Positions 1,465 through 62,802 of a stretch of 64,000 bases of DNA are shown in pieces. Source of the DNA: a virus; the IMG/VR virus record IMGVR_UViG_3300025707_000004; one strand, given 5' to 3'. The translations under genes and the position numbers were made by a program. Positions within the stretch are counted from its first letter, which is position 1. Each line of letters begins with the position of its first letter. The notes beneath the pieces were generated by a model. The model did not search any database, was not told the origin of the DNA, and was given only the letters and a program-made list of their open reading frames with translations.

Positions 1465-2128
1465 AGAAATCTCCGCTCTCGGGCCCACAGGACCGGAGGC
1501 GATACCGGAAGCGTTCACGAACAGCGAGACACATCCGCTCGTTCTTGGACTAATCCTCCTCAAGACCTTCAAGACGGAGTACCTCGGCTGGGAGCCTGAG
1601 ACCGTCTGGGCGGAGATTTACCTGTCCTTCGGGCGCACACCTTCTGCGGCTTCCCGCAACAAGATTCAGGCTATCCGGTCGAGCATGGTGGCTTCTGCGC
1701 CGTACGAGGCGTGGGACATCTTCGAGAATGTAGCCCTGGGTCTTCGCGGCCTACCCCCACGCTTTGACATGGTGCAGCAGGCCAACCCGCTGCAGTGTGC
1801 CTTCGCCCTCGACGTGCTCTCCTCGCTGCGCCAAGACGTCAAGGTGTCGAAAGAGGTCTACAAGTACGTCGCCGCCGGGATGTTCTCGGCGGGGTATGTC
1901 TACGGCCCCGGGCCGCTTGAGCCGTGTAACGACTACGTGCAGAAGCTGGGCGAGGGCAGTACCTCGTCCATGCAGGATGCGGTGCGGCTATTAGTCGCTA
2001 ATAACTCGCCGGGCGTAGACGCTCGCTCGGCCATCGGCCTGCAAGCCGCTAAGTCCCAGGCTATAGTAGCCTTTGTGCGGAAGCAGAATGCCCTGTTCAT
2101 CGAGCAGTCCAGCAGGTTGTTGAGTTAA
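1454..2128 (+). CDS. hypothetical phage protein (portal-adjacent)
   Basis: 224 aa ORF tightly coupled to both neighbours, with globular composition. Confidence 0.7.
   Translation: MRPEEISALGPTGPEAIPEAFTNSETHPLVLGLILLKTFKTEYLGWEPETVWAEIYLSFGRTPSAASRNKIQAIRSSMVASAPYEAWDIFENVALGLRGLPPRFDMVQQANPLQCAFALDVLSSLRQDVKVSKEVYKYVAAGMFSAGYVYGPGPLEPCNDYVQKLGEGSTSSMQDAVRLLVANNSPGVDARSAIGLQAAKSQAIVAFVRKQNALFIEQSSRLLS
1989..2003. repeat. TATTAG-TCG-CTAATA palindrome (dispersed motif, copy 1 of 14)
   Basis: Read directly. Lies inside a CDS and encodes LLVAN. Confidence 0.9.
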
Positions 2129-2130
2129 GC

Positions 2131-4026
2131 ATGTCCGTCATTACAGCCCCTTCGGCCGGTAGGCAGGCCCGCGCCTCGTCAGTGGGGCGGCCTGAGGCGT
2201 TCTACCCGTCACCGTTCTTCGACATCGCTGAGAACTACCTCCCGTCGACTATCCGGGAGACGTTCGAGTGGTGTGCCTACTACCAGCGTACCAACCCCAT
2301 CATCTCGACGGTGACGAGTCGCCTCGCGGCGTACCCCATCACGGACATCATGTTCGACGAGGGGAACGAGGGGCTGGTCGAAGAGTGGCGGGACCTGTTC
2401 GAGACCAAGCTGCGCATCCGCCAGTTCCTGGTCGAGCAGAACCTGGACAGGTACACGTTCGGCAACTCGTTCTGTACGGTCTCATTCCCGTTCGTGAAGA
2501 AGCTGACGTGTCGTCAGTGCCAGCACGCGGTCGAGGCGTCCAAAGCTAAGTACCAGTGGCGCGACACGAAGTTCATGCTGCACTGCCAGGAGTGCGATAC
2601 CCAGCACGAGGCGAAGGTACACGACGAGTACCAGAAGAACCTCGAAGCGGTGCGGCTGGTCCGGTGGAACCCGCGGGTAATCGAGATCGAGTACAACGAG
2701 ATAACTGGGCGTTCCCGGTACTTCTACCGGATGCCCCAGTATCTGCGGAACCAGATTACTCTTGGCATTCCTGACGTGGTGCAGAACGTCCCCCAGACGT
2801 TCATCGACGCGATACGTAAAAAGAAGGCCATCCTCATCGAGTCGGACAAAATCTTCCACTCGCGGAGGGCGTCCATCAGCACGAACCCGGGGGACCAGGG
2901 CTGGGGCGCCCCGCTTGTCCTGCCGGTCCTGAAGGACATCTTCTTCACGCAGGTCCTGCGGAAGAGCCAGGAAGCGGTGTGCATGGAGCACATCGTCCCC
3001 ATGCGTGTGCTCTACCCGCAGGTCACCGGAGACGGCAACAACTTCTACTCCCAGGTCAACCTGAAGAGCTGGCAGAAGGAGGTCGAGCTTCAGGTCACCA
3101 AGTGGCGCCAGGACCCCAACCACATCCCGGTCCTCGGGTTCCCGCTCGGCTACCAGCTCATCGGTGGGCAGGGCCGGGCCATGCTGCTCCACCAGGAGCT
3201 GCGGGTCTACTTCGACCAAATCGTAGCGGGCATGGGTGTGCCCACCTCGTTCTTCTACGGGGAGGCCCAGTACAGCGGCGCGAGCGTGAACCTCAAGGCG
3301 CTTGAGAACGAGTTCCTTGGCAACCGTCAAGACATGCTGCGGTTGGTTCACTTCATCCGGGATGCCATTGCCGGTGGGTGTGACAAAACGCCTATTGGGA
3401 TGAGGTTCCGCCCGTTCAAGATGGCGGACGACATCCAGCGCGCGTCGTACGACCTGCAGCTGTCGCAGGGTGGGCTCATCTCGCAGCGGTCGTTGCTACA
3501 GTCTCGGGACTTCGACTACGACCGGGAGCAGACGCTGCTCAAGACCGAGCGGTCGGTCCAGGCGCGTGTATCGCGCCAGCAGATTGTCGACCAAGCGGCG
3601 GCGCAAGGCGAGGCGCAGATTATCCAGGCCAAGTACGGCGCACAGGCGCAGGTGCAGCAGCAGGAGATTCTGAACCAGAACGGCATGGCGACGCCGGAGC
3701 AGCAACAGCAGCAAGGGCAGGAGCAGCAGGGTGCTGCGGGGCAGCAGGCTCAACAGGGCCAGCCGCAGCAGCCTGGGCAAGAGCAGCAGGCTCAGCCGGG
3801 GCAAGAGCAGCAGCCGGTGGAGAGCGCGGGAGGCCAGAACCTCGCCGTAGCGGCGCGGACCGTCGCCCAGCAGTTGAGCGCTATGTCAGAGGTCGACCAG
3901 TATCACCGGCTGGAGCAGCTGCGGGCCAACAACCCGAATCTGTACGAGCTGGTTTTCAGGGACCTAAAAAGTCAGGGCGTACGGCTACGCCCCAACCCTG
4001 AGCAGTTACCCTCGCGCGGACCCTAG
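2131..4026 (+). CDS. portal protein with Zn-ribbon insertion and Gln-rich C-terminal tail
   Basis: Portal-like segments YPSPFFD...YYQRTNPIISTVTSRLAAYP, LVRWNPRVIEIEYN and GWGAPLVLPVLKD. Insertion CRQC...CQEC. 631 aa, in the head-gene context. Confidence 0.75.
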   Translation: MSVITAPSAGRQARASSVGRPEAFYPSPFFDIAENYLPSTIRETFEWCAYYQRTNPIISTVTSRLAAYPITDIMFDEGNEGLVEEWRDLFETKLRIRQFLVEQNLDRYTFGNSFCTVSFPFVKKLTCRQCQHAVEASKAKYQWRDTKFMLHCQECDTQHEAKVHDEYQKNLEAVRLVRWNPRVIEIEYNEITGRSRYFYRMPQYLRNQITLGIPDVVQNVPQTFIDAIRKKKAILIESDKIFHSRRASISTNPGDQGWGAPLVLPVLKDIFFTQVLRKSQEAVCMEHIVPMRVLYPQVTGDGNNFYSQVNLKSWQKEVELQVTKWRQDPNHIPVLGFPLGYQLIGGQGRAMLLHQELRVYFDQIVAGMGVPTSFFYGEAQYSGASVNLKALENEFLGNRQDMLRLVHFIRDAIAGGCDKTPIGMRFRPFKMADDIQRASYDLQLSQGGLISQRSLLQSRDFDYDREQTLLKTERSVQARVSRQQIVDQAAAQGEAQIIQAKYGAQAQVQQQEILNQNGMATPEQQQQQGQEQQGAAGQQAQQGQPQQPGQEQQAQPGQEQQPVESAGGQNLAVAARTVAQQLSAMSEVDQYHRLEQLRANNPNLYELVFRDLKSQGVRLRPNPEQLPSRGP

Positions 4027-4280
4027 TCACGCGCGGAGGCAAGCACCACTGCGCAGAGCACGGGGCTGAACCCCCCGCACTCCTCACAGTTCCCGCTTGA
4101 GAAGTACACCTCAGCGGTGTCCTCCTCGACGACCAGACACGTACCGCACAGCCACTCGGCCGTCCAGGCGCGTCGCTTCTCGAAGAAGCGGCAGTCAGCA
4201 CACTCCCGGGGGGTGTAGCAAGGCATCGGGGCAAGCGGACAGCTTACCCCCGGCCTCAGCGGGATGAATTTTGGGTTCAC
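4023..4280 (-). CDS. small Cys-rich (Zn-finger) protein
   Basis: CADC, CGTC and CEEC motifs. Lies downstream of a GGTATAAG element and a 26-codon ORF (4362-4282). Confidence 0.55.
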   Translation of the reverse strand: MNPKFIPLRPGVSCPLAPMPCYTPRECADCRFFEKRRAWTAEWLCGTCLVVEEDTAEVYFSSGNCEECGGFSPVLCAVVLASARD

Positions 4281-4429
4281 CCTACTTCTGAACGGGGGTG
4301 AGCGCGTCTTCGGTCCCGCGTTCCAGGTCCTTCGTTGTGGACGTGTTTGTGATTGCTTTCATAAAAAACTGGGCTCCTCTCACACAGTGACTGCGAACGT
4401 CGGAAGAGTATTCTTCCTTGTTCGTAATT

Positions 4430-4437: not shown

Positions 4438-4517
4438 AAGAAGGAGAACCTGTTTAGCGCAGGCCGTGCGCTGCTAGTATGGGCGAAGGTACGCCCCAAA
4501 ACAGAGGCTTTTCCCCG

Positions 4518-7500
4518 ATGGCGGATATCCATACCCTGGACCCAGAGAGGGCGATGCAAGCCCTCAAAGACGGCACAATCCAGGTTCTCAAAGACACCCT
4601 CCCGATTGAGGGGCGGACGCGCATCTTGCGCGCTACAAACGTCTATGCTGGGCCCAACGTCCACATCGACGACATACACGCTCAAAAGCGGGCCAGGGTC
4701 CGCAATCGGACATGGGCGGTCCCCATCCTCGCGGACATGGAGCTGGTGGACAAAGCCTCCGGCAAAGTGGTGTCGAAAACCAAGGGCGTGCGGCTGCTGA
4801 ATCTGCCGCACTACACCCGCCGGTACTCGTTCATCGTGGACGGGACGGAGTACCAAGCAGACAACCAGTGGCGCCTCAAGGCCGGCGCGTACACACGTAT
4901 GAAGGCTAACGGCGGACTGGAGACCCAGTTCAACCTGAGCAAGGGCCGCGGGTTCCGTGTGAGCTTCGACCCCAAGAAGCGCCAGTTCCTGGCCACCCAC
5001 GGGACGACCAACACGCCCCTCGTGCCCCTTCTTCAGACACTGGGTATCAGCGCCGAGGAGATGGAGACGGCCTGGGGGCCGGAGGTCTACCAGACCGCCG
5101 CACGCCTTCAGCGCAAAGGGCAGATGGCGAAGCTCGCCAAGACCCTGAACCCCCGGTCCGAAGCGACCACTCCCGAGGAGGTCGAGGATGTTGTACGTGA
5201 GTCGTTCGCGGCGACCGAGCTTCGCCCGGACACCACCAGCGTCACCTTGGGCAAGGGCTTCACGACCGTCACCGGCGAGGCGCTGCTATTAGCGGCTAAT
5301 AAGCTGCTCGGCGTTTCTCGTGGGACGGCCGAGGTGGACAACCGTGACTCCCTCCGGTTCAAGGAGCTGTGGACGGTGGCCGACCACCTCCCGGAGCGCA
5401 TCAAGAACTCGCGTCGTCGGGTGGAGCGGAAGATCCGCAACAACCTGGACCGCCGTGACGACATCCGCAAGATTGTGACCCCTGACGTTTTCAACGTCCC
5501 GGTCAAGTCGTTCTTCACCTCGACCTCCCTGTCTCAGCGCCCCTCACAGCTGAACCCGGTCGACATGATTGGCGGGCACCTCAAAGCCACCCTGATGGGC
5601 ACCGGCGGTATCAGCACGGAGAACGCGGTCAGTCATTCTGCCAAGATGCTGGACTCTAGCCAGATGGGCTTCACTGACCCGTTTCACAGCCCGGAGGGGA
5701 CCCGAAGTGGTATCACCACGCACCTGACGCTGGGTGTCTCCAAGCGAGGCAACGAGCCGGTCATCAAGGTGTGGGACGTGAAGAACAGCAAGTGGGCGGA
5801 TGTCTCCCCCACGGAGCTGCACGGGAAGACGCTGGCCTTTCCCGACCAGTACGACACGGGAGACGGAAAGACCTTCAAGCCTCGGAAAGACCTCATCACG
5901 GTCATCCGCGGGGGTGAGGGTGACCCCACCAATGTGAAAGCCAACGAGGTGGACTATGTTCTGCGATCTCCCAAGGCGATGTTCTCATTCACTGCGAACC
6001 TCATACCGTTCTTGCCCTCTGACCAAGCGAACCGTGCGGGAATGGCTGCGCGTCACATGGAGCAGACGGTTCCGCTGAAGAACCCCGAGGAGCCCCTTCT
6101 TCAGGTGGCTTCTGGCTCGGACCAGCCGGCATGGGACACCTGGGAGAAGATTCTCGGCCAAATGCAGTCACACGCCAGCCCGGTGTCCGGGACGGTGAAG
6201 TCGGTCGAAGCCGAGCGCATTGTGGTGGCAGGGGACGACGGCAAGAAGCACGTTGTCCAGCTCTACGATAACTACCCCCTCAACGACTCCAAGGCGTTCG
6301 TTACCAGCAAGCCCCTGGTGCAGAAGGGCGACGAGGTCAAGAAGGACGACGTCATCGCTGACACTAGCTTCACCAAGGGCGGCGTCCTCTCGATGGGCAC
6401 CAATCTGCGCGTGGGCTATCTGGCGTACAAGGGGCTCAACTACGAGGACGGCATCACCATTAGTGAGACGGCCGCCAAGAAGCTCACCAGTGAGCACCTG
6501 CACAAGCCGCGTGTGTACCTGGACACCGGGATGATGATGGGGCTGAAGAAGTTCCGTGCGAACTTCCCCGGGGTTGTCTCTGACGCGAACGCCGCCAAGC
6601 TCGACGAGGATGGGGTCATCAAGCGTGGCGAAATCGTCCGCCCTGGTGACGTGATTGCCACAGTGCTCAAGGAGGCGGACCCTTCGGCAGAGCAAATCAT
6701 GCTCAAGGGCATCCACAAGAGCTTGGCCAAGCCCTACAGGGACCGCTCGCTCACGTGGAACAAGCCGTACACGGGTGTGGTCACGGAGGTCGTGCGTAAC
6801 GGCAAAGAGGTCGTCGCTTACGTCAAGACGGCAGAAGAGGCCGACATCGGCGACAAGCTGACCTCACGCCATGGGAACAAAGGCGTCGTGGTTGCCATCC
6901 TCCCGGACGAGGAGATGCCCCGGGATGGCGATGGTGCCCCGCTGGAGATTGTGCTGAACCCCTCGGGTGTTCCTGGGCGCATCAATCCTGGGCAGGTCCT
7001 GGAGAACGCCATCACGCTCGCAGCGGTCGAGGACGGGAAGCCCTACGCGGTCTCGAACTTCGATGGCGACGAGGGGCACCGCATCAGCGTGGGCGACGTG
7101 TCCACCAAGATCGTCCAGGTCAAGGGGCACTACCGGACAATCAAGTCCGGGAAGGGCTCGAAGCGCATCTGGATTGAACCCTACGAGTACGAGACCGGTT
7201 ACAAGGGGCTCATTGACCAAATCCTGGAGAAGAAGGGCCTGTCGGAGACGACGGAGCTGTTCGACCCGGAGACGGGGAAGAGCCTGGGCCCAGTCATGAC
7301 GGGGCACCAGTACATCCTCAAGCAGGAACACCAAGTCGACAAGAAGCTGTCTGCCCGCGCGCACGGCTACGGGCATGCTTACAACGCCAACATGGTGCCG
7401 CGAGGTACCTACGGTGGTAACGACGGCGCTCAGCGGTACGGCGAGCTGGGCCTCTACGCGATGATTGCCCACGGCGCGGTCAACAACATCCGCGACGCTC

Positions 7501-11954: not shown

Positions 11955-13252
11955 TGAGTGGGCTCTCTAAATCCCCTGAGCAGGCGTCGCGCCCAGGGCG
12001 GCTGGAGCTGTGCGAAGTTACCGATGTGAACACCACCGAGTTCACGGTGAGCCTCATGGGGGTGTTCACGCACAAGCCTCATGCGGAGATGCCCTTTGCC
12101 TCGCTGTACTGCCACCCCGACCACGGCGGTGGTGTGTACGTGATGCCCGAGGTGGGTGCCTACGCCTACGTGTTCACGTCAGCAGACGGCACGTCCATGC
12201 TGATGGGGTTCGTTACCAACCCACAGTCCGTCGAGGGGGAGGTCTTCGATAAGAACGGCACCCCTACGCTCATCGAGTCCTCGAAGGGGCCGGACTTCTC
12301 GGGCTTCCGCTTGGACATGGAGCCCGGCGACATCGCGATGGCGACCAAGGATGGCAACCGTGTTGTCCTTCGTCGCGGGGGCATCGTCCAGATTGCGGCA
12401 ACGGGTATCGCCCAGCGGCTGTACATCCCCGTTGGCAATGTCATCCGGGACTACTTCGAGCGCTATCAGGCCCGGTCGCCGCAGGGGCGCATCGAGTGGG
12501 GGCACGCGACTATCCTGGAGGAAGACGACGACACCGTTGCTGTGCTGATTGAGTACGACTTCAAAGAGTCCATCGAGGACACCGCAGCGGCGGTGGAGGT
12601 TCGTTTCGGGCAGCTGACGTTCGATGTGCTGGACCCGGAGAAGGCTGGCAAGCACCACACATTTGCCAGGAACAAGCAGGACGACTACGAACTATTAGCG
12701 ACTAATATTGGGGTGCTCAGCTGCACCGTGATGTCGCGCGACGAGGTGCCCGCGGTTACGTACGCCGTACAGGTCTCCCGAGAGGGTGACTGCTTCATGA
12801 TGTCGAAGGGCCATATCCAGGTAGAAACCGAGTCGCTGTACCTCAAGCTAGGGCAAAAGGGTAAAGTTGTCTTCGGAGCTAGCTTCATCGAGGCTATAGC
12901 GGAGTCCAACAGGCTGAAGGCGGTGGTCAGGGAACTGCTCTTGGAAAGCACCGAACTGATACACATGAGGGCAGCTGAAGCCACAATGAATCTAGGGGCT
13001 GTACGAATGCAGTTCGAGGGCGGAGCCCTGACCATTACCCCGCCGGGGGGTGGTCGTGTGGATTTCGGTGGCCCTGGCGGACACGACGTCGTGATTAACA
13101 GCCACGACCTGCTTCGTGCGATTCGTGACCACGAGCACTACATTGAGGGGGCGGTCCCCTCAACGAACGCCGGAATCGTGAGGGCTAAGAAGTCCCCTAC
13201 GCTCGGCGGGATTACCAGAGCAACCTCGACACTTCTAAAGACGACTAGGTAG
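11954..13252 (+). CDS. baseplate central spike / gpV-Gp5-like protein
   Basis: N-terminal OB-fold-type GGVYVMPEVGAYAYV motif, beta-rich C-terminus, and an H-x-H (DHEH) near the end as in spike tips. Confidence 0.55.
   Translation: MSGLSKSPEQASRPGRLELCEVTDVNTTEFTVSLMGVFTHKPHAEMPFASLYCHPDHGGGVYVMPEVGAYAYVFTSADGTSMLMGFVTNPQSVEGEVFDKNGTPTLIESSKGPDFSGFRLDMEPGDIAMATKDGNRVVLRRGGIVQIAATGIAQRLYIPVGNVIRDYFERYQARSPQGRIEWGHATILEEDDDTVAVLIEYDFKESIEDTAAAVEVRFGQLTFDVLDPEKAGKHHTFARNKQDDYELLATNIGVLSCTVMSRDEVPAVTYAVQVSREGDCFMMSKGHIQVETESLYLKLGQKGKVVFGASFIEAIAESNRLKAVVRELLLESTELIHMRAAEATMNLGAVRMQFEGGALTITPPGGGRVDFGGPGGHDVVINSHDLLRAIRDHEHYIEGAVPSTNAGIVRAKKSPTLGGITRATSTLLKTTR
12693..12707. repeat. TATTAG-CGA-CTAATA palindrome
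   Basis: Read directly. Inside a CDS. Confidence 0.9.
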
Positions 13253-15209: not shown

Positions 15210-16073
15210 ATGCGGGTTCCATACGAGCGGTGGCTGAAATGCCTTGTACAGTTCCAGGGCATGACCATTCAGGAAGCGATTCTCGTCGCTGACTCGTACG
15301 GTTTCATTCCACCGACCAACGAGACCCTCACCTTCGTCCGCTTGGAGCTTGCTCGCGGACGCCCAAAGCCCTTCAAGCCCGAGTCGACTGAGGCCATCCG
15401 CTGGATTCGCGATGCGGGCTTGTGGTCGATGCACGTCGAGACGGAGCACGTCACCGCAGCGCGCGGCATTCTGAGCCAGCTTCAGCTGCGCCGTGTCGTG
15501 GAGTTTCTATTAGTCGCTAATACTCCGCACAACGTGGTGTCGGAATATGCCCGTGACGTGTTGGGTGTCGCCATCGACGCTGCGGCCATCGCGGCTTACG
15601 AGCACTACTTCTGGGACGCCAACTCTCTGACCCAGCGGCAGTGGGTGGCGTACTTCAAGGGGGAGTTCCACCAGGAGCGTAAGGATCAGGCCGCCAACGG
15701 TGTCCGGGCGAAGGACATGACCGTCCCCATCATGTCGCTGCAGTCGAAGAAGCTGCTCGACACGATGCGTATGCGGAGCCCCGAGTACGCACTCTGGCAG
15801 CTGGGCCACCGCGTTGAGCTGGGACGGGACCAAGTCCTTGGCTCGATGTTCCATGAGGCAGCCATGAGGTTCACCGAGACCAGCTTGATGAGCAACTGCC
15901 TGCACACCGCGCAGACGGCCAAGCTCTGGACGGAAATCCTGATGAGTTCAGACGACCGTCTGGCGGGCACGGGGAACCAGACTCAGCAGCTACTGGAGGA
16001 GCTGCGAAGTATCCGTATTCGGACGCAGGAAGTTAAGGTATCTTCCATCGAAGAGTTGCGAGGAGACACCTGA
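15210..16073 (+). CDS. hypothetical phage protein
   Basis: 287 aa helical protein, tightly coupled to neighbours. Confidence 0.7.
   Translation: MRVPYERWLKCLVQFQGMTIQEAILVADSYGFIPPTNETLTFVRLELARGRPKPFKPESTEAIRWIRDAGLWSMHVETEHVTAARGILSQLQLRRVVEFLLVANTPHNVVSEYARDVLGVAIDAAAIAAYEHYFWDANSLTQRQWVAYFKGEFHQERKDQAANGVRAKDMTVPIMSLQSKKLLDTMRMRSPEYALWQLGHRVELGRDQVLGSMFHEAAMRFTETSLMSNCLHTAQTAKLWTEILMSSDDRLAGTGNQTQQLLEELRSIRIRTQEVKVSSIEELRGDT
15508..15522. repeat. TATTAG-TCG-CTAATA palindrome
   Basis: Read directly. Inside a CDS. Confidence 0.9.
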
Positions 16074-22011: not shown

Positions 22012-22219
22012 TGAGGCGCACTACCCCGTTCTTCTTCGCATAGACCGTGTAGTTCGGTAGGACTTCGCGAAGCGCGGCCTTGAAGCCCGCATTATTAGCG
22101 ACTAATAAAAGGGGGTCGACCTGTAGGACGAAGCCACCTTCGGTAGTCTCAATCTTGTGGACCAGCCCACTGAGGGCGCGATCCACGTGGGCAAGGTCAT
22201 CTGGTATTGTCGAGGACAT
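21860..22219 (-). CDS. hypothetical protein
   Basis: Protein-like N-terminal 70 aa. Divergent from the terminase and contains a palindrome copy. Confidence 0.4.
   Translation of the reverse strand: MSSTIPDDLAHVDRALSGLVHKIETTEGGFVLQVDPLLLVANNAGFKAALREVLPNYTVYAKKNGVVRLIKRKQNTRRNRAGSRLKLEQVGEAFETQAVEVQEQGDDGAADAVDFFAPD
22093..22107. repeat. TATTAG-CGA-CTAATA palindrome
   Basis: Read directly. Confidence 0.9.
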
Positions 22220-29232: not shown

Positions 29233-30890
29233 TGGACAAGCTCATCACTTTCTCTGGCGTCTCCTCTACGGGGGAGCCCCTCGTCCAGGCGTTGTTCCCT
29301 GACGTCGACGACGGGAAGGTGAAGGTTGCATCCTTCAGCCGTCTCCACCCGGAGATGCAGAAGTACGTCGACAGTTACAAGCCGCGCCCCGGCAAGCTGT
29401 GCGTCCTGGTCAACGCCCTCGGTGCGGGTGAGTACTACGGCTCCAACGTCAACGCGGATTACTTCGAGGAGTCGGAACTCGACCCGCAGGAGTTCAAGGG
29501 GCTCCCGGTCGACGTCAACCACCCGAGCCTGTACGGGCACCAGACGTTTCTCCGCGCGAACGTCTTCAGGCACCACAAGAACAAAGACCCCGGCATCACC
29601 TACGGGCAGATCGTAAAGGTCGTCTACAACGAGGTTATGCACCGCGTCGAACTCATCATTGAGATTGACCGACGCCGTGCTGAGGAGCTGGGGTACCAGG
29701 ACCTCTTGTCGGAGCTGGATGCGGGCGGCCACCCAGCCGTAAGCATGGGTGCGCGGGTCAAGTACGACGTCTGCAGCATCTGCGGCAACAAGTCGTTCAC
29801 GCGCGCTGACTACTGCAACGACATGAAGATGATGCGCAATCAGGTCCTCCCTGATGGCCGCAAGGTGTTCGTGTACAACCCGAAGCCGAAGTTCTTCGAC
29901 CTGAGCTTCGTCATCATCGGTGCAGACAAGACCAGCTACGCCATGCTCAAGGTGGCCTACGCCCAGGAGGCGTTGCAGCACGGCCTGTCGGCTGACGCTG
30001 CGGCTGTAGCCGGAACGGGCCGAGACTTCGACCGCCGCATCCTCTTGCAGAAGATGGCGGAGGTCCAGAAGAAGGCCACCATCACCAAGCGCATCCCTTC
30101 GCTGGCCCATGGCCTCAGTCCGCACCTTGCTTCCCGTGAGCCCGACATGGACATGGGGCAGATGCAGGAGCTGGCGAGGCAGCCAATCGAGCGGACCCTC
30201 ACCAGTACCGGCGCTGCTGGGATGGTGTTGAAGCCCTCGGAGTTCCAGACCATCGTGCTCATCAAGATGCGCCAGCCCCGTTTGGCGCGCGAGATGTGGG
30301 ACGGCGGTCAGTGCTTCGCCCCTGAGTCCGGTGCGGATATGGGGATGCGTTGGGGGAGCCCCCGCGATTATCAGCCGCTAATAACGCGCGCCCTGAGTCG
30401 CATCCTCGGACGTCGTAGTGCGCTGGGTGAAGACCCCGGTGTAGGCCGCCCTCGCTGCATCGTTCGCGTTGTCCGGCCGGTCGAAAGTAACACCCCTCTT
30501 CTCACGAAGGTGGCCGAGGGTTACAACGGATACAGAATTCAGCTTCTGGAGAAGGCACCTTCTCTAGTAAGCTCAGTGACAAGTAGAGACGGAGACCTGC
30601 TATCAACCGTCTTCGGCGAAGTGCTTGAAGGTTCGTTGCTGGGTTTGGAAAAGAGCGCTGGGATCCCCCCCGAGCTACTGACCGACACCAGCCTTGCTTA
30701 CCTTTATGGGGCTCACCACCAAGGTTTCGGTGGGCTTACGAAGAGCGCTTCCGCTGTTGATGAGTTCGTTGAGCGGCATCCCGTGCTGGCGGCATCGCTT
30801 CTGCTCGGTTTGGTTCGACTTGGGAACCAACTGCACAGGACTGGAAAGCTCGGTCAGCTTTTGCATGCAGGTCTAGCTAAGCTGACCTGA
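29232..30890 (+). CDS. putative prohead (capsid maturation) protease with Zn finger
   Basis: RHHKNKD...GQIV, VSMGARVKYDVCSICGN and FFDLSFVIIGAD resemble the His/Ser motifs of HK97/assemblin-type proteases. Lies upstream of the scaffold and MCP. Confidence 0.65.
   Translation: MDKLITFSGVSSTGEPLVQALFPDVDDGKVKVASFSRLHPEMQKYVDSYKPRPGKLCVLVNALGAGEYYGSNVNADYFEESELDPQEFKGLPVDVNHPSLYGHQTFLRANVFRHHKNKDPGITYGQIVKVVYNEVMHRVELIIEIDRRRAEELGYQDLLSELDAGGHPAVSMGARVKYDVCSICGNKSFTRADYCNDMKMMRNQVLPDGRKVFVYNPKPKFFDLSFVIIGADKTSYAMLKVAYAQEALQHGLSADAAAVAGTGRDFDRRILLQKMAEVQKKATITKRIPSLAHGLSPHLASREPDMDMGQMQELARQPIERTLTSTGAAGMVLKPSEFQTIVLIKMRQPRLAREMWDGGQCFAPESGADMGMRWGSPRDYQPLITRALSRILGRRSALGEDPGVGRPRCIVRVVRPVESNTPLLTKVAEGYNGYRIQLLEKAPSLVSSVTSRDGDLLSTVFGEVLEGSLLGLEKSAGIPPELLTDTSLAYLYGAHHQGFGGLTKSASAVDEFVERHPVLAASLLLGLVRLGNQLHRTGKLGQLLHAGLAKLT
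30369..30383. repeat. TATCAG-CCG-CTAATA (1-mismatch palindrome copy)
   Basis: Read directly. Inside a CDS. Confidence 0.75.
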
Positions 30891-31625: not shown

Positions 31626-31660
31626 AAGGGCGGGGGAAGCAATTCTCCCGTCCTTTTTTC
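31626..31660 (+). terminator. intrinsic terminator
   Basis: Hairpin AAGGGCGGGGGA...TCTCCCGTCCTT followed by a T-run. Confidence 0.7.
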
Positions 31661-31680: not shown

Positions 31681-31695
31681 TATTAGCCGGTAATA
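31681..31695. repeat. TATTAG-CCG-GTAATA (1-mismatch palindrome copy)
   Basis: Read directly. Intergenic. Confidence 0.75.
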
Positions 31696-37288: not shown

Positions 37289-38200
37289 ATGCTGCATGTG
37301 GCGCACCTACGTGTCCGCAGCTTCAGTCTCGACTACCTCGACATCTACTGGAGTCTGGCGAACGGAACATCTGAGGACCCACGGGATTACGAGTTCGTAG
37401 TCCAGTGGTCGTCCAATCAGTATGGTCCGTACCAAGCGGTCTCCGCCCCCATCATCGACGGGTTCCACTTCAGGGACACGACGGTCAAAGGGCAGCACTC
37501 TTTCTACCATCAGCGTTATTACCGACTAATAATCCGAAATCGCTCCTCGCAGGTCGAGGTCGCTTTTCCGGCTGAAGGCGGTGTCCGTCTTGAGGCTCCT
37601 GCGGACCTCATGGCGCTGGAGATGGCGCGGCAAGAGAACCTCAAGCTGAAGGAGTTCAACGGGCGGAAGGTGTGGGTCTTCGCGAAGCGGGTCTCGGGTC
37701 CGCGCTGCACTGCCTGCTATGACCCTGTCCAGCGTCGGCGAGTACGAAGTGACTGCGCGTCCTGCTTCGGCACCGGCACCTACGGCGGCTACCATGCCCC
37801 TGTCGAGTGCTACATGCAGATCCACACTCCGACAGAAGTCACACTGAAGATTCCTGACGGGGAGGTCCAGGTGGAGAACACGCAGTTCCGTCTGGGCAAC
37901 TACCCTGAGCTGTCTGAGGGTGACTTGGTCGTCGAGGCAGAGAACGTACGGTGGGCGGTCAGCGACCAAGTCGACAAGGTCCGGAAAGCCCGAGCGTTGG
38001 TCCGGCAGCAGGGCATCCTGCACCGCATCCCGAAGACCGATGCGCAGTACAACGTGCCGCTCAAGCTGACTGTGACCGAGGCGGGGGACCTACTGGGCTC
38101 TCCTGACCGGAACTTCTCGAACCCGCACAACCTCGCCGACGCTGACGTAGGCAAGGCAATCATCAGGCTGTTCGGCCCCCGTGACCATGAGCATCAATAA
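37289..38200 (+). CDS. neck/head-closure protein with Zn finger
   Basis: FN3-like N-terminus, CTAC...CASCFGTG motif, located between adaptor and sheath genes. Confidence 0.5.
   Translation: MLHVAHLRVRSFSLDYLDIYWSLANGTSEDPRDYEFVVQWSSNQYGPYQAVSAPIIDGFHFRDTTVKGQHSFYHQRYYRLIIRNRSSQVEVAFPAEGGVRLEAPADLMALEMARQENLKLKEFNGRKVWVFAKRVSGPRCTACYDPVQRRRVRSDCASCFGTGTYGGYHAPVECYMQIHTPTEVTLKIPDGEVQVENTQFRLGNYPELSEGDLVVEAENVRWAVSDQVDKVRKARALVRQQGILHRIPKTDAQYNVPLKLTVTEAGDLLGSPDRNFSNPHNLADADVGKAIIRLFGPRDHEHQ
37517..37531. repeat. TATTAC-CGA-CTAATA (1-mismatch palindrome copy)
   Basis: Read directly. Inside a CDS. Confidence 0.75.
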
Positions 38201-43219: not shown

Positions 43220-43234
43220 TATTAGCCGCTAATA
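43220..43234. repeat. TATTAG-CCG-CTAATA palindrome
   Basis: Read directly. Intergenic, immediately after the sheath stop codon. Confidence 0.9.
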
Positions 43235-47660: not shown

Positions 47661-47675
47661 TATTAGCGGCTAATA
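47661..47675. repeat. TATTAG-CGG-CTAATA palindrome
   Basis: Read directly. Intergenic. Confidence 0.9.
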
Positions 47676-52845: not shown

Positions 52846-52860
52846 TATTAGCGGCTAATA
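52846..52860. repeat. TATTAG-CGG-CTAATA palindrome upstream of parB
   Basis: Read directly. Confidence 0.9.
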
Positions 52861-52908: not shown

Positions 52909-53073
52909 GACCACAATTTTGTGGTCGGTGTTCTGAATGATTCCGAGTAGTTACGCCCCTTCAGGGCTAGAGGTTTTAGAGGCGACCACAACTTTGTGGT
53001 CAGCGAAGTCAATGATTTCAGGCACTTAGCTGCATTAGTTGCAGTCTGCAAGTGACCACAAGGTTGTGGTCAC
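52909..53073. repeat. array of three GACCACAA-NN-TTGTGGTC palindromes (left)
   Basis: Copies at 52909-52926, 52984-53001 and 53054-53071, about 70-75 bp apart. Confidence 0.92.
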
Positions 53074-54152
53074 CCCTTGGGTGTGTTCGCCCCGTCGCGC
53101 TTGCGCCTCTTTATAGAAGCCAGCCTAGTTCTGGCCGTGTTTACGTCCGCAACTGGCTGTATTTCGCTCTTAATTCGGAGGCTTCTGAGGGTGGAAACGT
53201 CCCCTCTTATCTCAAGTCCTTGTTCTTTAAGGCGAATCTCCACAACACCCAAACGAAGGACCACGTCATCTGCCTCGACGGTGAGGAAGCGCAGCGCGGG
53301 GTAGCTCTGGGCCAGAACCCGCAGCTCCCCGGCGAGGTCGGCCACCATCCGTGCGTCCCTCGAAGAGGACGCAAGTTCTGTCTGCCTTATTGCTTCTACC
53401 TGCAGGTTGATGAGGTTTACGGCATTTACTCGCCCAAGCAGCGCAGCTATCTGGTCAAAGGAGGATTTCATCTGCAGACGGTCTGCGAGACGTAGCGCTG
53501 CGAGGGCGTGAGCGAAGCGCCCCTGCAAGTCTGAGATACCTGAGATGAGTTGTACTCTCTCAGCTTCTAGCTCAGTAATGTTAGTTTCGGTAGCCGCTAT
53601 CACTCCCTCGTCAGCAACGGGCGTTAGCCCGAGAACGGTGCTCCTGACGTTCCGTGCATCTGCCAGCCAGTCAGAGAGTAGGCGCTGCAGGGCCTCCGCT
53701 TCGCGGAAGAACACCCCCGCGTCGTAGACCAGCTCCTCAGCCTCCCAGAGGTACTGGTCAAACATACGTTGTCTGAACGTAGTGAACTGCTCAGGAGAGA
53801 GTGTGAAGTCTTGTAGAGCAGAGAGGAAGTTGGTGTAGAGGCTGGGGACCAGGACCACTGCCGGGGGCAGGGTCTTGTAGGTGTTCAGTTTCTGGAGCCC
53901 CGCCCACACCTCTGGGCAGGCGACGCGGTAGGGCAGGTGCACGGCTACCAGCCGCGAGGCTGGAATGTGCGTCCACTGCAGAATCCGCCCCGTATCCTTC
54001 GTTGAAAGCGAGCCCTCTTCCCAGTACGTATCGTCAGTTGGGTCGTAGAACTCTATTTCTGGAGGCCGTTTTAGGACAGAACTGCGACTGATTTTGATGT
54101 GAACGGTGTCCGGTTTCGAGGGAGAAAGGAACGAAAACTCACGATGGGGCAT
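53070..54152 (-). CDS. coiled-coil protein enclosed by the palindrome arrays
   Basis: About 360 aa from ATG 54152, with a helical/coiled-coil central region. The stop codon lies inside the third left palindrome. Confidence 0.65.
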   Translation of the reverse strand: MPHREFSFLSPSKPDTVHIKISRSSVLKRPPEIEFYDPTDDTYWEEGSLSTKDTGRILQWTHIPASRLVAVHLPYRVACPEVWAGLQKLNTYKTLPPAVVLVPSLYTNFLSALQDFTLSPEQFTTFRQRMFDQYLWEAEELVYDAGVFFREAEALQRLLSDWLADARNVRSTVLGLTPVADEGVIAATETNITELEAERVQLISGISDLQGRFAHALAALRLADRLQMKSSFDQIAALLGRVNAVNLINLQVEAIRQTELASSSRDARMVADLAGELRVLAQSYPALRFLTVEADDVVLRLGVVEIRLKEQGLEIRGDVSTLRSLRIKSEIQPVADVNTARTRLASIKRRKRDGANTPKG

Positions 54153-54182
54153 TTCTCGTCCCAGGTGTGTGCGGGCTCTGGG

Positions 54183-54346
54183 GGTGACCACAACCTTGTG
54201 GTCACCTCTAATACTTCTACAACGGGCCTAAGTATGCAGAATCATTAGAGGTGCTGACCACAAAATTGTGGTCACCCACAGAGTGTGTACGGCTAAGTAC
54301 CTGAAATCATTGAACGTGGTGACCACAATGATTTGTGGTCACCACG
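54183..54346. repeat. array of three GACCACAA-N2-4-TTGTGGTC palindromes (right)
   Basis: Copies at 54186-54203, 54256-54273 and 54321-54340. The last extends to a 32-bp inverted repeat at 54315-54346. Confidence 0.92.
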
Positions 54347-54366: not shown

Positions 54367-54381
54367 TATTAGCGGCTAATA
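54367..54381. repeat. TATTAG-CGG-CTAATA palindrome
   Basis: Read directly. Overlaps the stop codon of the 54369-55085 gene. Confidence 0.9.
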
Positions 54382-55085: not shown

Positions 55086-55088
55086 CGG

Positions 55089-57361: not shown

Positions 57362-58598
57362 AACGCGTCTTGAGCCTTTCGAGTAGGCCGCCCAGATTCT
57401 GGGTCAGCTGGAGATTCGTGTCGGCCGACCCGAGGAGGTCGGGAAAGATGGGCTGCCCGCAGATGCCTTTGGCGTCTGGAAACGGGTTGCCCTGTCGTTT
57501 GGCTTCGGTTCGGAGGCAGTTGGTGTGCGCCACTGTGGGGGTCTGCCCGGGTTTGGGAGAAGGGAGTGTGTCTGCGCAGACAAAACAGCGCGGTGTGCGG
57601 CAAGCGTTCGCGGTGTGTGGCGCCCCACGACCACAGGGACATTCGTCCTCGTCCGTGTGGCAGTCCGTCCAGTTGCTCAGCGCAAGGTACGGGTCCGCGT
57701 GGTTGTAGTGACTGAGTAGGTGGCAGACCAGGATGGCCGCGTCCAACCACCGCCCGTCAGACATGTGGTCTAGCAGCTCTGACGAGCCGGTGCTTCCACA
57801 GCAGAGGCTGCCCCCGCTGTTCGCATGTGGCATGAAGTAGTCCATACCGGCGGTCAGAAGGTCGACGGGCTCGTCAATAAAGGGAGTGATGTACGCCCCC
57901 GCGTGCCGAGAGACATTCCCCTGGTTCAGTCGGATGCGCACGGAGAGCCGGGGGAAGTAGGTATCAATGGGCCACGTACCATCCTCCGAAGTTTCCGCCC
58001 AGGTGCGTGTGATGCGCTTGGTGCGGAAGGACACTTCCAGGAAGGTTGGCCGGTCGATGACGGTGATTCCAGCCCGGCGGTCGATGAGGGCCAGGAAGTA
58101 TCCGACGTTCTCGTCTTCCTCGGGGTAGGGCATACCCGCTTCGATGCGGGTCTTGAGGGCACCCAGTCGCTTCGCAACCTTTGCTTGGTTGCTGTTGTGC
58201 CGCTGGAGCAGGTTCAGGGCGTGCCTGTGTGCCTGCTGGTTCTGTAGCAGTTGGGTATGGGCGTCACTAAGGTTGCTGGCCGCCCGCTCTCCGTCACGCT
58301 TGGCGGTCGATACGCGTTGCTGCAGGGCAAGTACGTCAGCGTCCGCAAGCGCCTTTTGTTCGAGTGCGGCTTCCTTGGCGACCTTCGCCGCCGCGATGGC
58401 TTCTTCTCCGTCGTCGGTTTTCACCATCGCGTCGGCGATAAGATTGGGAAAGGCGTCAGCTTCCGCTTGGAGGTTGACGACCATGCGGGTGAGCCCGGTG
58501 CCCGCCTTTTTGGCGGCGGTATTGTAGCGGTCAACGAGGGCCTGCACGACCTCGCGGTCAGTTGCCCCCGCATCTAAGCCAATGAGGCCGATGCGCAA
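57246..58598 (-). CDS. coiled-coil + E2/UBC-like domain + Cys/His Zn-finger protein
   Basis: AAGGAG RBS before TTG 58598. PHANSGGSLCCG...LLSHYNHADPY resembles the prokaryotic E2 active-site region. C-terminal CPCG...H...C...CFVC...HTNC...C. Confidence 0.6.
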   Translation of the reverse strand: MRIGLIGLDAGATDREVVQALVDRYNTAAKKAGTGLTRMVVNLQAEADAFPNLIADAMVKTDDGEEAIAAAKVAKEAALEQKALADADVLALQQRVSTAKRDGERAASNLSDAHTQLLQNQQAHRHALNLLQRHNSNQAKVAKRLGALKTRIEAGMPYPEEDENVGYFLALIDRRAGITVIDRPTFLEVSFRTKRITRTWAETSEDGTWPIDTYFPRLSVRIRLNQGNVSRHAGAYITPFIDEPVDLLTAGMDYFMPHANSGGSLCCGSTGSSELLDHMSDGRWLDAAILVCHLLSHYNHADPYLALSNWTDCHTDEDECPCGRGAPHTANACRTPRCFVCADTLPSPKPGQTPTVAHTNCLRTEAKRQGNPFPDAKGICGQPIFPDLLGSADTNLQLTQNLGGLLERLKTRYERNQNRDSGRIEVHPASPPIQAAGHGSDDAAGPHLQR

Positions 58599-58611
58599 AG
58601 GTATCTCCTTC

Positions 58612-58644
58612 AAATAGAAAAAGGGCGCGGTTTCCCGCGCCCTT
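58612..58644 (-). terminator. intrinsic terminator between the Ubl and E2 genes
   Basis: Perfect 10-bp stem AAGGGCGCGG/CCGCGCCCTT, GAAA loop on the - strand, and a T-rich tail. Confidence 0.8.
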
Positions 58645-58676
58645 CTAGTTACCGGTGAGGCAGCGGGAAGGGGCTC

Positions 58677-59099
58677 TTAGCAGCCGCCCTCCACCTTCTG
58701 CGACACCTGAACGCGGAACGTGCCCGCGGAGAGGGTTGTGGTGTTCGAGGCCATCGTCGAGGACATGTCCGGCCTGATGACGGAGACCTCGCGCTCGCTG
58801 ATGTTGACGTTGTTGTCCGCCAAGAGGCGGAACAGGTTCACCCCGGCTTCGGCCTCGACCTCGAACTTGCGCTTTCCGGCGCGGTCGATGATGACCCGGG
58901 ACGCGCCACCGCTGCCGCCACCGCTCGACACAGCGGCGGTCGTGGTGTTGGCCGAGGTGAAGCGCGACAGGTCCTCGATCCACGCGGAGATGCCCGTCTT
59001 GCTGGTCCAGGGCGACGCGTAGGCCGCCTTCTGGTCGCGGTCCATGGCCTTCAGAGCGGCCTTGGCGTCGGAGGGGTCGAGGTTCTTGAGGTTATCCAT
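58677..59099 (-). CDS. ubiquitin-like (beta-grasp) protein with N-terminal extra domain, ending KVEGG-C
   Basis: The C-terminal ~70 aa fit a beta-grasp pattern and end in GG plus one residue. A Gly/Ser linker joins it to a helical N-domain. First gene of the E2/JAB/E1 operon. Confidence 0.72.
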   Translation of the reverse strand: MDNLKNLDPSDAKAALKAMDRDQKAAYASPWTSKTGISAWIEDLSRFTSANTTTAAVSSGGGSGGASRVIIDRAGKRKFEVEAEAGVNLFRLLADNNVNISEREVSVIRPDMSSTMASNTTTLSAGTFRVQVSQKVEGGC

Positions 59100-59838: not shown

Positions 59839-59880
59839 CTCCCTTTACAGAGTGGGGGTAACTCGGTCCTAACCAGCGCT

Positions 59881-60010
59881 CTTATACCGTGTAACCCCCT
59901 CTTTTTGTACTACATGATGTACACCCCGGTTCGTCGGAAACCCCCGCGGTTATTAGCCGCTAATACCAACGTGTATATCAGGGCAGATGGCGGGGGCTTA
60001 TTGGTATAAG
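59881..60010. promoter_or_regulatory. divergent promoter region: two GGTATAAG elements flanking a TATTAG-CCG-CTAATA palindrome
   Basis: 59881-59888 (-), palindrome at 59951-59965, and 60003-60010 (+). Lies at the strand switch. Confidence 0.65.
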
Positions 60011-60056
60011 CCGTTTGTACCCAGAAGGTTAGTACACCCCAGGAAAAGGGATACAG

Positions 60057-60905
60057 ATGCGTAACAAAGTTCTAGTTACTCCCGCCACGTTGGAGAGTGA
60101 CGACGCTTTCGGGCAGTTTTTCGCAATGGCGGCAGCGCTGAATGGCATCGCCGTTCCGGCGGAGGGAATCGAGGCAACCATCACTGCTCGTATGGGCGGG
60201 CAGAACGTGGATGTGCTGGAGGTGCTGAGTGCCATGGTGCTCCAGCAGGCGACGCCGGCCACCACCACACCCGACAACTCGGTCCCGGCGTTTGAGCACA
60301 CCCCGCGCCTCGACGGCGAGGGTATTGTCCCGCCCCCGGCTATCGAAGTGCCGCAGCGGACAGACCTCCCGGTGCTGATCGACCCGGACGGCCAACTGAA
60401 CGGCCCGTTGCTCATGCTCACGGCCAACCAGTACCACAGGCTGCACGAGCGCATGCGTAACCTCAGCCCCATCGTTCCGGGCGTGGAGGAACTGCGTGCC
60501 AGCGTGGTCCGCCTTGTGGAGGACCTCACTACCAAGGCGCTCCACGCAAAGCTGGCCAATCTCCGAGACCCTTTGCTGGCGATGCTGCAGCAGTTGGACA
60601 CGGGCGTCCGTATGACCGCGGGCGAATCCGTCCAGGGCCTTACACGTGGGCAGACACGTACACACCTGGAGGAAACCCTCCCAGGACTTCGGGAGCAGAT
60701 GGAGGAACAGCGCGCCAGCTATATGGAGGTGCACCGCATGTTCAGTGATGGTTTCGTCAACGCTCGCGTGGACGAGATGTTCGAGGTGCGAACGGAGACG
60801 GAGGAGGTAGTCGACCCAGACAGCGGCGACACCGTTACGAACGTGCTGAGGACCCTGTTGGCCCTCGGAGGCGCTCGTGGGGAGTCACACCATGCCGCAG
60901 AGTAG
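60057..60905 (+). CDS. hypothetical protein
   Basis: 282 aa, downstream of a GGTATAAG element. Confidence 0.65.
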   Translation: MRNKVLVTPATLESDDAFGQFFAMAAALNGIAVPAEGIEATITARMGGQNVDVLEVLSAMVLQQATPATTTPDNSVPAFEHTPRLDGEGIVPPPAIEVPQRTDLPVLIDPDGQLNGPLLMLTANQYHRLHERMRNLSPIVPGVEELRASVVRLVEDLTTKALHAKLANLRDPLLAMLQQLDTGVRMTAGESVQGLTRGQTRTHLEETLPGLREQMEEQRASYMEVHRMFSDGFVNARVDEMFEVRTETEEVVDPDSGDTVTNVLRTLLALGGARGESHHAAE

Positions 60906-61707: not shown

Positions 61708-61727
61708 CACCGCGGCCGTAAAAAGTG

Positions 61728-61757
61728 GAGGGGGCGGGGGACCCCCTCTCTTTTTAT
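61728..61757 (+). terminator. intrinsic terminator
   Basis: GAGGGGG...CCCCCTC stem followed by a T-rich tail. Confidence 0.55.
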
Positions 61758-61817
61758 CTAGCAATCTTGTACAGAATGATATACTGCTGAGGGACCGTAG
61801 GAGGAAGCCAAGCGCTT

Positions 61818-62054
61818 ATGGTTCAGGAGACGATCTGGAGGTACGAGGCGAACCGTCGCGGCAAGGCTGCGGCGGCGGAGAACAAGATTGGGCCTTATAC
61901 CGTGCTGGAGGAACAGCTCACTCGTATCCGCTTACTGCGGATTTTCGCCTGCAATGACTACGACGCGTGTTTGACATACGCCGCCAGGAAGAACTGGGAT
62001 TCGTTCACCTGTCGCGGCTGCAAGAAAGCTGAGGTACTGCGTGGCATCTCGTAA
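61818..62054 (+). CDS. small Cys-motif protein
   Basis: AGGAGG RBS. CNDYDAC...FTCRGC motif. A TGnTATACT extended -10-like sequence lies upstream. Confidence 0.65.
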   Translation: MVQETIWRYEANRRGKAAAAENKIGPYTVLEEQLTRIRLLRIFACNDYDACLTYAARKNWDSFTCRGCKKAEVLRGIS

Positions 62055-62802
62055 GAAGCCCAAGCCTGAAGAGGCTGCGGCCCCTGTGACTGTGGCCACC
62101 CTGAAGGAGCGGGCTAGAAAGGCCGAACCGGTTGTCCCGGCTGCAGCTCCGGTTGAGTCCCCGACGTCACGACCACTCTCTCCACAGATGCGAAGCACCA
62201 TCCAGGGGTACGCTCGTGATGCTGCGGCATTGGAGGCCGAGCCCGAAGATGATGGTCGCGTGGACCTGGGGGAGATTCCCGAGGAGGTCAAGAAGGCGCG
62301 GGAAGAGGAAGAGAAGGAGAAGGACACCAGCACCGTCGTGTACTCGTACACTGCGTACGACCGACCAGAGGTGCGTAAGCAGGTCGAGGCACGTTGCGAG
62401 GACCTGGGCGACTTCTCGGACCTCCTGACCAGTGGTCGGGTGATTCAGCAGGTGCCGATTCTTAGCGAGCGGCTCGATGTCGTTTATCAGTCGCTAATAG
62501 GCTCCGAGACGTGGTTCGCCCAGCGGGTGGCTATGACTCGCTACCCGCGCGGTCGTGAGGCACAGACCTGGAACGGCTACGCACGTCTCGCGCTGGCGGT
62601 CATGGCCATCAACGGTGCTGAGTACCCCCCGGCCTACAACGAGAAGAAGGAGCTGGATGAGCAACTGCTTGCCGCTCGTGTCGAGCAATTCCTGAAGTTG
62701 CCTGAGCACCTCATCAATCTGATGCTGGTCAACCTGGGTTGGTTCGATGACCGCGTCGAGCAGCTGTTCAAGGACGACTTCGACCTCCTAAAAAATGGAT
62801 AA
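62041..62802 (+). CDS. putative tail assembly chaperone (frameshift upstream ORF)
   Basis: Ends ...DLLKNG* over the slippery heptamer A AAA AAT. The LALAVMAING segment resembles tail chaperones. Confidence 0.55.
   Translation: MASRKKPKPEEAAAPVTVATLKERARKAEPVVPAAAPVESPTSRPLSPQMRSTIQGYARDAAALEAEPEDDGRVDLGEIPEEVKKAREEEEKEKDTSTVVYSYTAYDRPEVRKQVEARCEDLGDFSDLLTSGRVIQQVPILSERLDVVYQSLIGSETWFAQRVAMTRYPRGREAQTWNGYARLALAVMAINGAEYPPAYNEKKELDEQLLAARVEQFLKLPEHLINLMLVNLGWFDDRVEQLFKDDFDLLKNG
62485..62499. repeat. TATCAG-TCG-CTAATA (1-mismatch palindrome copy)
   Basis: Read directly. Inside a CDS. Confidence 0.75.

Follow-up and report, generated by a model that had tools for sequence, protein, structure and literature searches.

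A dispersed 15-bp palindrome in an uncultured phage genome and a ParB-family protein as its candidate reader

What reads a short palindrome with A+T-only outer arms that recurs along a G+C-rich phage chromosome, and to what effect? This question is raised by a 64-kb stretch of an uncultured phage genome (IMG/VR record IMGVR_UViG_3300025707_000004), here called the window, to which counts and coordinates refer. The palindrome TATTAGNNNCTAATA, also written TATTAGCSGCTAATA, is found in ten exact copies in the window and in 14 copies when up to one mismatch is allowed (ten exact and four one-mismatch copies), against dinucleotide-shuffle expectations of 0.00 and 0.01, respectively. A preliminary description of the window had listed these 14 copies, all of which were correct in position and sequence on recount. 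As the G+C content is 59-66% all along the window, an outer half-site made up entirely of A and T is very unlikely to have arisen by chance. The explanation favoured here, with slightly better than even confidence and on sequence grounds, is that a dimer of the ParA-less ParB-family protein encoded by the phage would load at the palindrome, in a network resembling those of KorB and its operator OB or of Noc and its NBS sites. Related phages are referred to by G and L numbers, 80 related IMG/VR loci having been retrieved with a terminase alignment. The candidate protein and the sites are as follows.

51439-52740, minus strand: ParB/Noc/KorB-family protein P0001, 433 aa, with a ParB N-domain, a helix-turn-helix (HTH) and a Lys/Ala/Pro tail; candidate reader of the sites
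1989..2003: site TATTAGTCGCTAATA; intragenic, in gene 1454-2128, codons CTA TTA GTC GCT AAT
5287..5301: site TATTAGCGGCTAATA; in the fused beta-beta' RNA polymerase (RNAP) gene, relative G011 having a site at the same protein column
12693..12707: site TATTAGCGACTAATA; intragenic, in gene 11954-13252
15508..15522: site TATTAGTCGCTAATA; intragenic, in gene 15210-16073
22093..22107: site TATTAGCGACTAATA; intergenic, ~110 nt ahead of ATG 22218, the probable start of the terminase
30369..30383: one-mismatch site TATCAGCCGCTAATA; intragenic, its altered base abolishing an in-frame TAG
31681..31695: one-mismatch site TATTAGCCGGTAATA; intergenic, past a terminator-like hairpin at 31632-31648 and ahead of gene 31734-32348
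37517..37531: one-mismatch site TATTACCGACTAATA; intragenic, its altered base abolishing an in-frame TAG
43220..43234: site TATTAGCCGCTAATA; intergenic, 3 nt past the stop of a sheath-like gene and 27 nt ahead of the next start
47661..47675: site TATTAGCGGCTAATA; intergenic, between a hairpin with a T-run and the ribosome-binding site and ATG of minus-strand gene 47320-47649
52846..52860: site TATTAGCGGCTAATA; 105 nt ahead of the start of the ParB-like gene
54367..54381: site TATTAGCGGCTAATA; overlapping the stop of gene 54369-55085 and, together with site 52846, bracketing the cassette of a gene here termed X
59951..59965: site TATTAGCCGCTAATA; intergenic, between divergent genes and 91 nt ahead of gene 60057-60905
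62485..62499: one-mismatch site TATCAGTCGCTAATA; intragenic, its altered base abolishing an in-frame TAG

The hairpin and T-run beside site 47661 were seen by eye and are absent from the terminator-scan list. The copy that had been placed about 105 nt upstream of parB is site 52846, the 433-aa length of P0001 putting its start codon at 52738-52740, and the copy reported between divergent promoters is site 59951.

The site has the form of a 7-1-7 palindrome, TATTAGC-S-GCTAATA, with T also allowed at position 7. Its centre is CCG/CGG in eight copies and TCG/CGA in the remaining six, with a perfect palindrome in six of the seven intergenic copies and the T variant at position 7 occurring mostly in coding copies. 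The preliminary description had taken the constant YCG spacer to mean that the site is directional, but the centre of any odd-length palindrome is necessarily asymmetric. The two orientations of the central base are equally frequent in the window (7:7) and bear no relation to strand, transcription or gene direction; the relative G001 likewise shows no bias, and directionality of the site is thereby ruled out. Neighbouring copies are on average 4.65 kb apart, which would amount to approximately 40 sites per genome if the density of the window holds throughout, and their spacing is more even than random in the window (coefficient of variation 0.46, P=0.0016), in G011 (P=0.02) and in G001 (P=0.06). 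Sites with two mismatches at the ten core positions are absent from the window where 3.1 would be expected; near-cognate sequences thus seem to be avoided. The sequence evidence supports the view that the sites behave like self-contained binding sites for a symmetric protein.

Gene calling by simple codon usage gave 58 genes and a coding fraction of ~93% for the window. Seven of the 14 copies (1989, 5287, 12693, 15508, 30369, 37517 and 62485) are nevertheless intragenic and the other seven intergenic, in keeping with an earlier estimate that half or more lie inside coding sequences, and when four genomes are pooled 34 of the 63 sites fall between genes or at the extreme 5' edge of an open reading frame, compared with ~10% non-coding DNA. 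Selection acts on the DNA itself, as is evident from the loss of intragenic copies on shuffling, the stop-avoiding mismatches, the lack of two-mismatch sites and the even spacing. When synonymous codons were shuffled within genes, all intragenic copies were lost and the 12 core sites were reduced to a mean of 5.0, all of them untouched intergenic ones, a result that bears out the selection on DNA suggested in the preliminary description. The motif holds stop codons in two of the three frames on both strands, and the perfect intragenic copies all use the sole stop-free frame, CTA/TTA TTA GYC GCT AAT, which encodes L-L-A/V-A/T-N. The intragenic one-mismatch copies (30369, 37517 and 62485) lie in the frame reading TAT-TAG, and each alters exactly one base of the TAG. 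At site 37517 the encoded peptide is YYRLII, as opposed to YYR[VI][RS]V in the relatives, indicating that the site has changed the protein. The phage pays for the motif in codon usage and even in amino-acid changes.

The closer relatives of the window phage, with terminases 48-57% identical, share the outer half-sites TATTA-N5-TAATA around lineage-specific centres. Complete related genomes have 14-22 copies of this clade-wide form (N4-N6 in some relatives), and genome fragments up to one per 1.8 kb. Its outer TATTA/TAATA does not vary even among phages whose terminases are only ~50% identical. The inner bases are G-YCG-C in the window, A-CSG-T in G001 and G015 and free in G004. G001, with 15 copies in 42 kb, and G015 have the TATTAACSGTTAATA form, G011 a looser one, TATTAAT-S-A-C-TAATA (17 copies in 30 kb), and G004 and G012 (17 copies each) a centre without any information. 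The half-sites of G002-G004 also stand 4 or 6 bp apart, bringing their totals to 14, 20 and 22 sites, respectively. An invariant 'stem' combined with a variable centre and variable spacing points to a protein that reads two half-sites, rather than to a nucleic-acid structure. The flanks carry no information in any genome, no conserved second motif adjoins the sites, and a reversed-pattern control (Fur-like) gave no matches in any of the genomes scanned. In the complete genome G002 (L194-L202), all seven sites of the TATTA-N4-TAATA class fall within the 27-kb region from 148 to 175 kb and the N5 and N6 sites are found elsewhere, so that the spacing classes may mark different regions of this genome.

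The positions of the sites are mostly not conserved across lineages, and of the intragenic sites in the window only that in the RNAP gene is shared, with G011; positional conservation of intragenic sites was rejected with this sole exception. A conserved site is found in the head-gene block, at 31681 in the window, 25795 in G001, 24756 in G002, 98270 in G003 and 23902 in G004. Neither the motif nor any other dispersed palindrome was observed in the distant relatives G006-G010, G028, G037, G041, G045 and G046, and Salmonella phage Arash has no copy of the motif. The cultured relatives, Arash and the Vibrio phages D69, D181 and D148, are very distant (capsid protein 35-37% identity, partial), and neither a megablast search with 20 kb nor a tblastn search with P0001 found a match among cultured phages. 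A scan of IMG/VR with the exact motif returned chance single matches and one 6.7-kb contig with two (L076) and identified no relatives, while searches for related loci with a single terminase, with ParB alignment A1 (against IMG/VR and genome contigs) or with P0125 or P0127 gave no match. The near-identical metagenome contig L093 was the sole related locus recovered by one ParB search.

On the evidence of sequence profiles and a structural model, gene 51439-52740 encodes a true ParB-fold protein. P0001 alone has no Pfam match at E<=0.01 and a weak PHROG match only. The profile of its family (A3), comprising 35 representatives of 46 members found among 1.84 billion sequences, matches Spo0J (1vz0, E=9e-28), Noc (7ol9, 1e-22) and KorB (8qa8, 7e-8), and the top Foldseek matches of the AlphaFold2 model (pLDDT 81) are ParB cytidine triphosphatases (CTPases), Noc and KorB. 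Pfam ParB_N is above cut-off in the orthologs of G002 and G003. The HTH has a recognition helix with KSQ, box III (ENLAR) is present, and the C-terminus forms a disordered, Lys/Ala/Pro-rich, H1-like tail, so that the ParB with an H1-like tail named in the preliminary description is upheld. Residues 1-30 are acidic, Ala/Pro-rich and predicted to be disordered (pLDDT <50), and no amphipathic membrane-targeting helix is obvious in this N-terminus as judged from sequence. At box II (consensus GxRRxxA), P0001-P0004 have GFQR, whereas G001-G004 and the majority of the family have G[FY]RR; loss of the first Arg of the CTP-binding patch is limited to the lineage with TATTAGC sites (P0001-P0004).

ParA-type ATPases (PF13614, PF01656) were found neither among the window proteins scanned nor in G001-G004 and G012, three of which are complete, while 14 of 14 control genomes gave a match. 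The lack of ParA remarked on earlier for the window thus extends to complete relatives, and with this negative search the network is not a member of the ParABS systems. The orthologs of P0001 are encoded in a syntenic module of gene X, ParB, AAA+, RecA-like and radical SAM genes that is confined to the motif-bearing clade. Motif and gene X-ParB-AAA+ module are found together in the window phage, L093, G001-G004, G012 and G021 and are both missing from G006-G010, G037, G040, Arash and Vibrio phage D69; the association of the motif with this ParB clade, a test of which was proposed in the preliminary description, therefore holds across the relatives examined, where both are present or both absent.

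The operator of KorB, (T)TTTAGCGGCTAAA(A), differs from the window site TATTAGCGGCTAATA at one symmetric position, 13 of the 15 positions being identical, and the KorB operator oligonucleotide of PMC11790492 is TTTTAGCGGCTAAAA. Plasmid RK2 carries 12 OB sites on ~60 kb, comparable with the 14 sites on 64 kb in the window. In a HMMER alignment to Spo0J, Q227 of P0001 corresponds to ParB R173 and Noc Q173, and K256 to ParB G201 and Noc R201. As shown by Jalal et al. (PMC7383237), adenine 1 is read by Q173 and cytosine 6 by R201, provided that permissive K/R residues are present. The phage half-site, T-A1-T-T-A-G-C6, matches this A1/C6 code, with K rather than R at the 201-equivalent position. 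The 173-equivalent residue is Q in every ParB-like protein of the motif-bearing genomes and in 35 of 35 family representatives, and is A, P or T in the ParB-like proteins of the motif-free relatives G028, G041 and G050, which have a canonical GERR and a different gene context. At the 201-equivalent position, K (window) or R (G001) is found where C6 is fixed and T in the lineages with a free centre. As aligned, the residues at these two positions co-vary with motif bases 1 and 6 across the lineages.

The upstream regions of 106 ortholog families of the window, G001-G004 and G011 were compared to a limit of 300 nt. The ParB family alone has an upstream site in three deep lineages, at 105 nt in the window, ~170 nt in G001 and ~100 nt in G002, where it is an N6 variant, and degenerate versions are found at that position in G003 and G004. 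The sole sigma-70-like match in 20 kb overlaps site 52846 on the parB strand. Sigma-70-like promoters are rare (1 versus 3.1 and 1 versus 1.2 expected), and each of the two matches overlaps a copy of the motif, with a TAATAAT-like -10 element.

In the mechanism proposed, a dimer of P0001 would nucleate at each 15-bp site, with each HTH reading one half-site, T0-A1-T2-T3-A4-G5-C6. One site would control the promoter of parB itself, while the remaining sites, at roughly even intervals of 2-5 kb in the dense lineages, would provide genome-wide coverage through sliding or spreading of the protein from the sites and through its basic tail. The outcome might be global transcriptional control, as for KorB, or a compaction or marking of the phage DNA, as for Noc or ParB condensates, helped by the H1-like tail; autoregulation combined with either global transcriptional control or compaction of phage DNA is our best guess. 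A more far-reaching version, possible but doubtful, is that a ParA-less ParB-type protein with an H1-like tail covers or condenses the whole chromosome of a virulent-type phage from ~40 even sites, as a chromatin or marking system whose role would be either to distinguish phage from host DNA or to time transcription by the phage RNAP, its specificity having evolved along the Q173/R201 code by which Noc and ParB differ.

CTP switches of the ParB family have been described on chromosomes and plasmids, in the form of parS centromeres, Noc-NBS and KorB-OB silencing. With the KorB-OB system of RK2 the phage shares a ParB-family protein, the 7-1-7 geometry, an identical inner 11 bp (TTAGC-S-GCTAA), an operator dispersed over the replicon at comparable density, and sites both near and far from promoters, one of which controls (in the phage, would control) the protein's own operon. 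It differs in being a phage rather than a plasmid replicon, in having A instead of T at position 1, in the absence of a detected IncC/ParA, and in a protein nearer to Spo0J/Noc by sequence, with an H1-like tail, a GFQR box II and many intragenic sites. As for the clamp-locking partner KorA/TrbA of KorB, no second motif adjoins the phage sites, although no search was aimed at KorA. Noc-NBS of Bacillus likewise comprises a ParB paralogue without a ParA role and many dispersed palindromes, and the likeness extends to the KSQ start of the recognition helix, a basic residue at 201 and the outer bases, tATT as in the NBS tATTTCCC. The Noc site is, however, 16 bp rather than 15 bp long, the phage N-terminus is acidic and disordered without an obvious membrane helix, and the density of sites in the phage is more than ten-fold higher. 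ParABS and parS resemble the phage system in the ParB N-domain and HTH fold and in a palindromic site whose outer half-site is T-rich, but no ParA was found here, the sites are not clustered, and the 173-equivalent residue is Q where parS binders have an invariant R.

Among phages, the nearest precedent is the 17-bp palindrome of the Cluster O mycobacteriophages (Corndog and relatives), TGTTCGG-NNN-CCGAACA, which occurs in 31-34 copies in a 70-kb genome (PMC4351075). Binding by a dimeric protein was proposed for this repeat by its authors, and recombination between repeats caused indels (PMC4351075). The Cluster O repeats are similarly invariant 7-3-7 palindromes with inter- and intragenic copies and a meaningless centre asymmetry, in a genome that encodes a ParB-like protein and an AAA ATPase. 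The phages are, however, unrelated, the sequences differ, and the Cluster O work did not connect the ParB-like protein with the repeat. If true, a near-copy of the KorB operator spread over a phage genome would extend the principle of the ParB switch to viruses, and would suggest a function for many ParA-less phage ParB-like genes and possibly for the Cluster O repeat. The lineage series also represents a natural experiment in ParB specificity, in which the half-sites TATTAGC, TATTAAC and TATTA-only can be set against K, R and T at the 201-equivalent position.

Several observations weigh against P0001 as the reader of the sites. The N4/N5/N6 spacing and uninformative centre in G002-G004 resemble Cro/CI-type operators more than known ParB sites, which have conserved centres; the DNA-binding domains of ParB and KorB bind half-sites largely independently and could tolerate variable spacing. 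The co-occurrence of motif and module is essentially that of one clade and so counts as a single evolutionary event, and the same clade profile is shown by many other genes, including the XRE-like and RHH homologs considered below. Phylogenetic profiling was accordingly rejected as a pointer to ParB, which is not singled out among the many clade-specific genes. The specificity rules are carried over from proteins that are ~20% identical to P0001, and no perfect site adjoins parB in G003, G004 and G012. The GFQR box II makes CTP-dependent clamping by P0001 uncertain. A further point concerns a second set of palindromes beside parB.

52909..54346: six palindromes, (G)TGACCACAA-N2/4-TTGTGGTCA(C), 18-22 bp, three on each side of gene X and ~70 bp apart
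53070-54191, minus strand: gene X, just upstream of parB

From its position this cluster could be the true target of ParB, or a centromere- or iteron-like rival to the dispersed sites. The six larger palindromes, also written GACCACAA or GTGACCACAA-NN-TTGTGGTCAC, are distinct from the dispersed motif and read as belonging to gene X, as iterons or operator. Lineage-specific counterparts are found with gene X in G001 (GTGTCAACA..TGTTGACAC) and in G003 and G004 (TGACAA..TTGTCA), and none beside the ParB-like proteins of relatives without gene X. Gene X itself gave no lead in Pfam, PHROG or the Atlas. In G001 (L174), perfect palindromes with 14- and 18-bp arms (TGACGTATATACAC.. and GCGTATACGTATGGGTATA..), at 1100-1140 and 5659-5697, adjoin the motif copies that flank gene X.

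Among the alternatives, an operator network of another dimeric phage regulator, acting as a global repressor or activator, survives best, although it is considered unlikely. Its binder could be encoded outside the window or be one of two proteins within it.

1-594, minus strand: XRE-like HTH protein, rival candidate binder
63240 onward: RHH-containing protein, rival candidate binder

Conserved 5-bp outer half-sites around a free centre with slightly variable spacing, as in G002-G004, are typical of Cro/CI-type operators, and the motif-bearing relatives are the only ones with homologs of the XRE-like and RHH proteins. Half of the sites are intergenic where ~10% of the DNA is non-coding, and several have a terminator-like hairpin on one side and the next gene on the other. 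Such regulators usually autoregulate, however, and no site adjoins the XRE or RHH homologs in any genome; nor would either protein explain the likeness to the KorB operator and the co-variation at Q173/K201. Control gene by gene is furthermore disfavoured by intragenic sites that cost rare codons or residue changes, by the rapid turnover of positions and by the even spacing.

The motif could also be a nucleic-acid structure (a DNA or RNA hairpin), or a promoter or terminator signal with an AT-rich TAATA for the RNAP that the phage itself encodes.

4479-11954: single-chain beta-beta' RNAP, carrying a LAGLIDADG homing-endonuclease segment at aa 1124-1317

A signal of this kind would accord with the scarcity of sigma-70-like promoters and with the overlap of the only two matches, with their TAATAAT-like -10, with motif copies, and a 6-bp stem with a 3-nt loop (N4-N6 in relatives) is formally possible. 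It is nonetheless improbable, as the 'stem' is invariant rather than co-varying, the flanks show no directional conservation, and relatives with the same RNAP (41% identity) have neither this motif nor another dispersed palindrome. Site 47661, moreover, ends 12 nt ahead of the ATG, upstream of the ribosome-binding site. The hairpin was the minimum-energy fold in one of five native contexts, with none significant, and an Rfam search of the motif gave no match, on which grounds an RNA hairpin was discarded, as was an extended promoter in view of the uninformative flanks. Boxes of the host factors CtrA, Fur, DnaA and IHF do not fit the site.

A nicking or cleavage signal, a recombination hotspot or a target of DNA modification is still less probable. 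The sites are dispersed and evenly spaced, the Cluster O repeats have recombined to give indels, and the clade-specific genes include an Snf2-type helicase and a radical-SAM enzyme.

16476-19679: Snf2-type helicase, 1067 aa (PHROG DNA helicase; weak methyltransferase-family match)
48139-51423: radical-SAM (Fer4_12), RecA-like and FtsH/Cdc48-type AAA+ ATPase genes, following parB

No link between an enzyme and the sites supports this explanation, however, and a palindromic nick site would yield double-strand breaks. The Snf2-type helicase is 50-59% identical in all motif-bearing relatives and absent from the motif-free ones, and the 48139-51423 module is syntenic in all motif-bearing relatives and missing from most others.

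That the sites are a classical parS centromere, through which a plasmid-like prophage would be actively partitioned, is hardly credible: the ParB-fold protein, the palindromic 15-bp site with one copy by parB and the few dispersed centromere sites of N15-type prophages speak for it, but ParA (PF13614, PF01656) was not found in three complete relatives although the control genomes matched, ~40 sites are projected per genome at window density with unconserved positions, and the complete relatives have direct terminal repeats like linear genomes packaged in virions. Of the parS interpretation in the preliminary description, the sites for a symmetric protein and the neighbouring gene for a genuine ParB fold stand, while a segregation centromere is unlikely given the lack of ParA, the number of sites and the rapid turnover of their positions.

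The window also encodes a sheath-like protein, as well as the following two genes.

22218-25088: GpA-type large terminase with an intein-type insertion (PF14528)
55089-55778: ThiF/E1-like protein, within the 54369-59099 block

Homologs of the ThiF/E1-like protein are confined to the motif-bearing clade, and the relatives carry both intein-free and multi-intein versions of the terminase.

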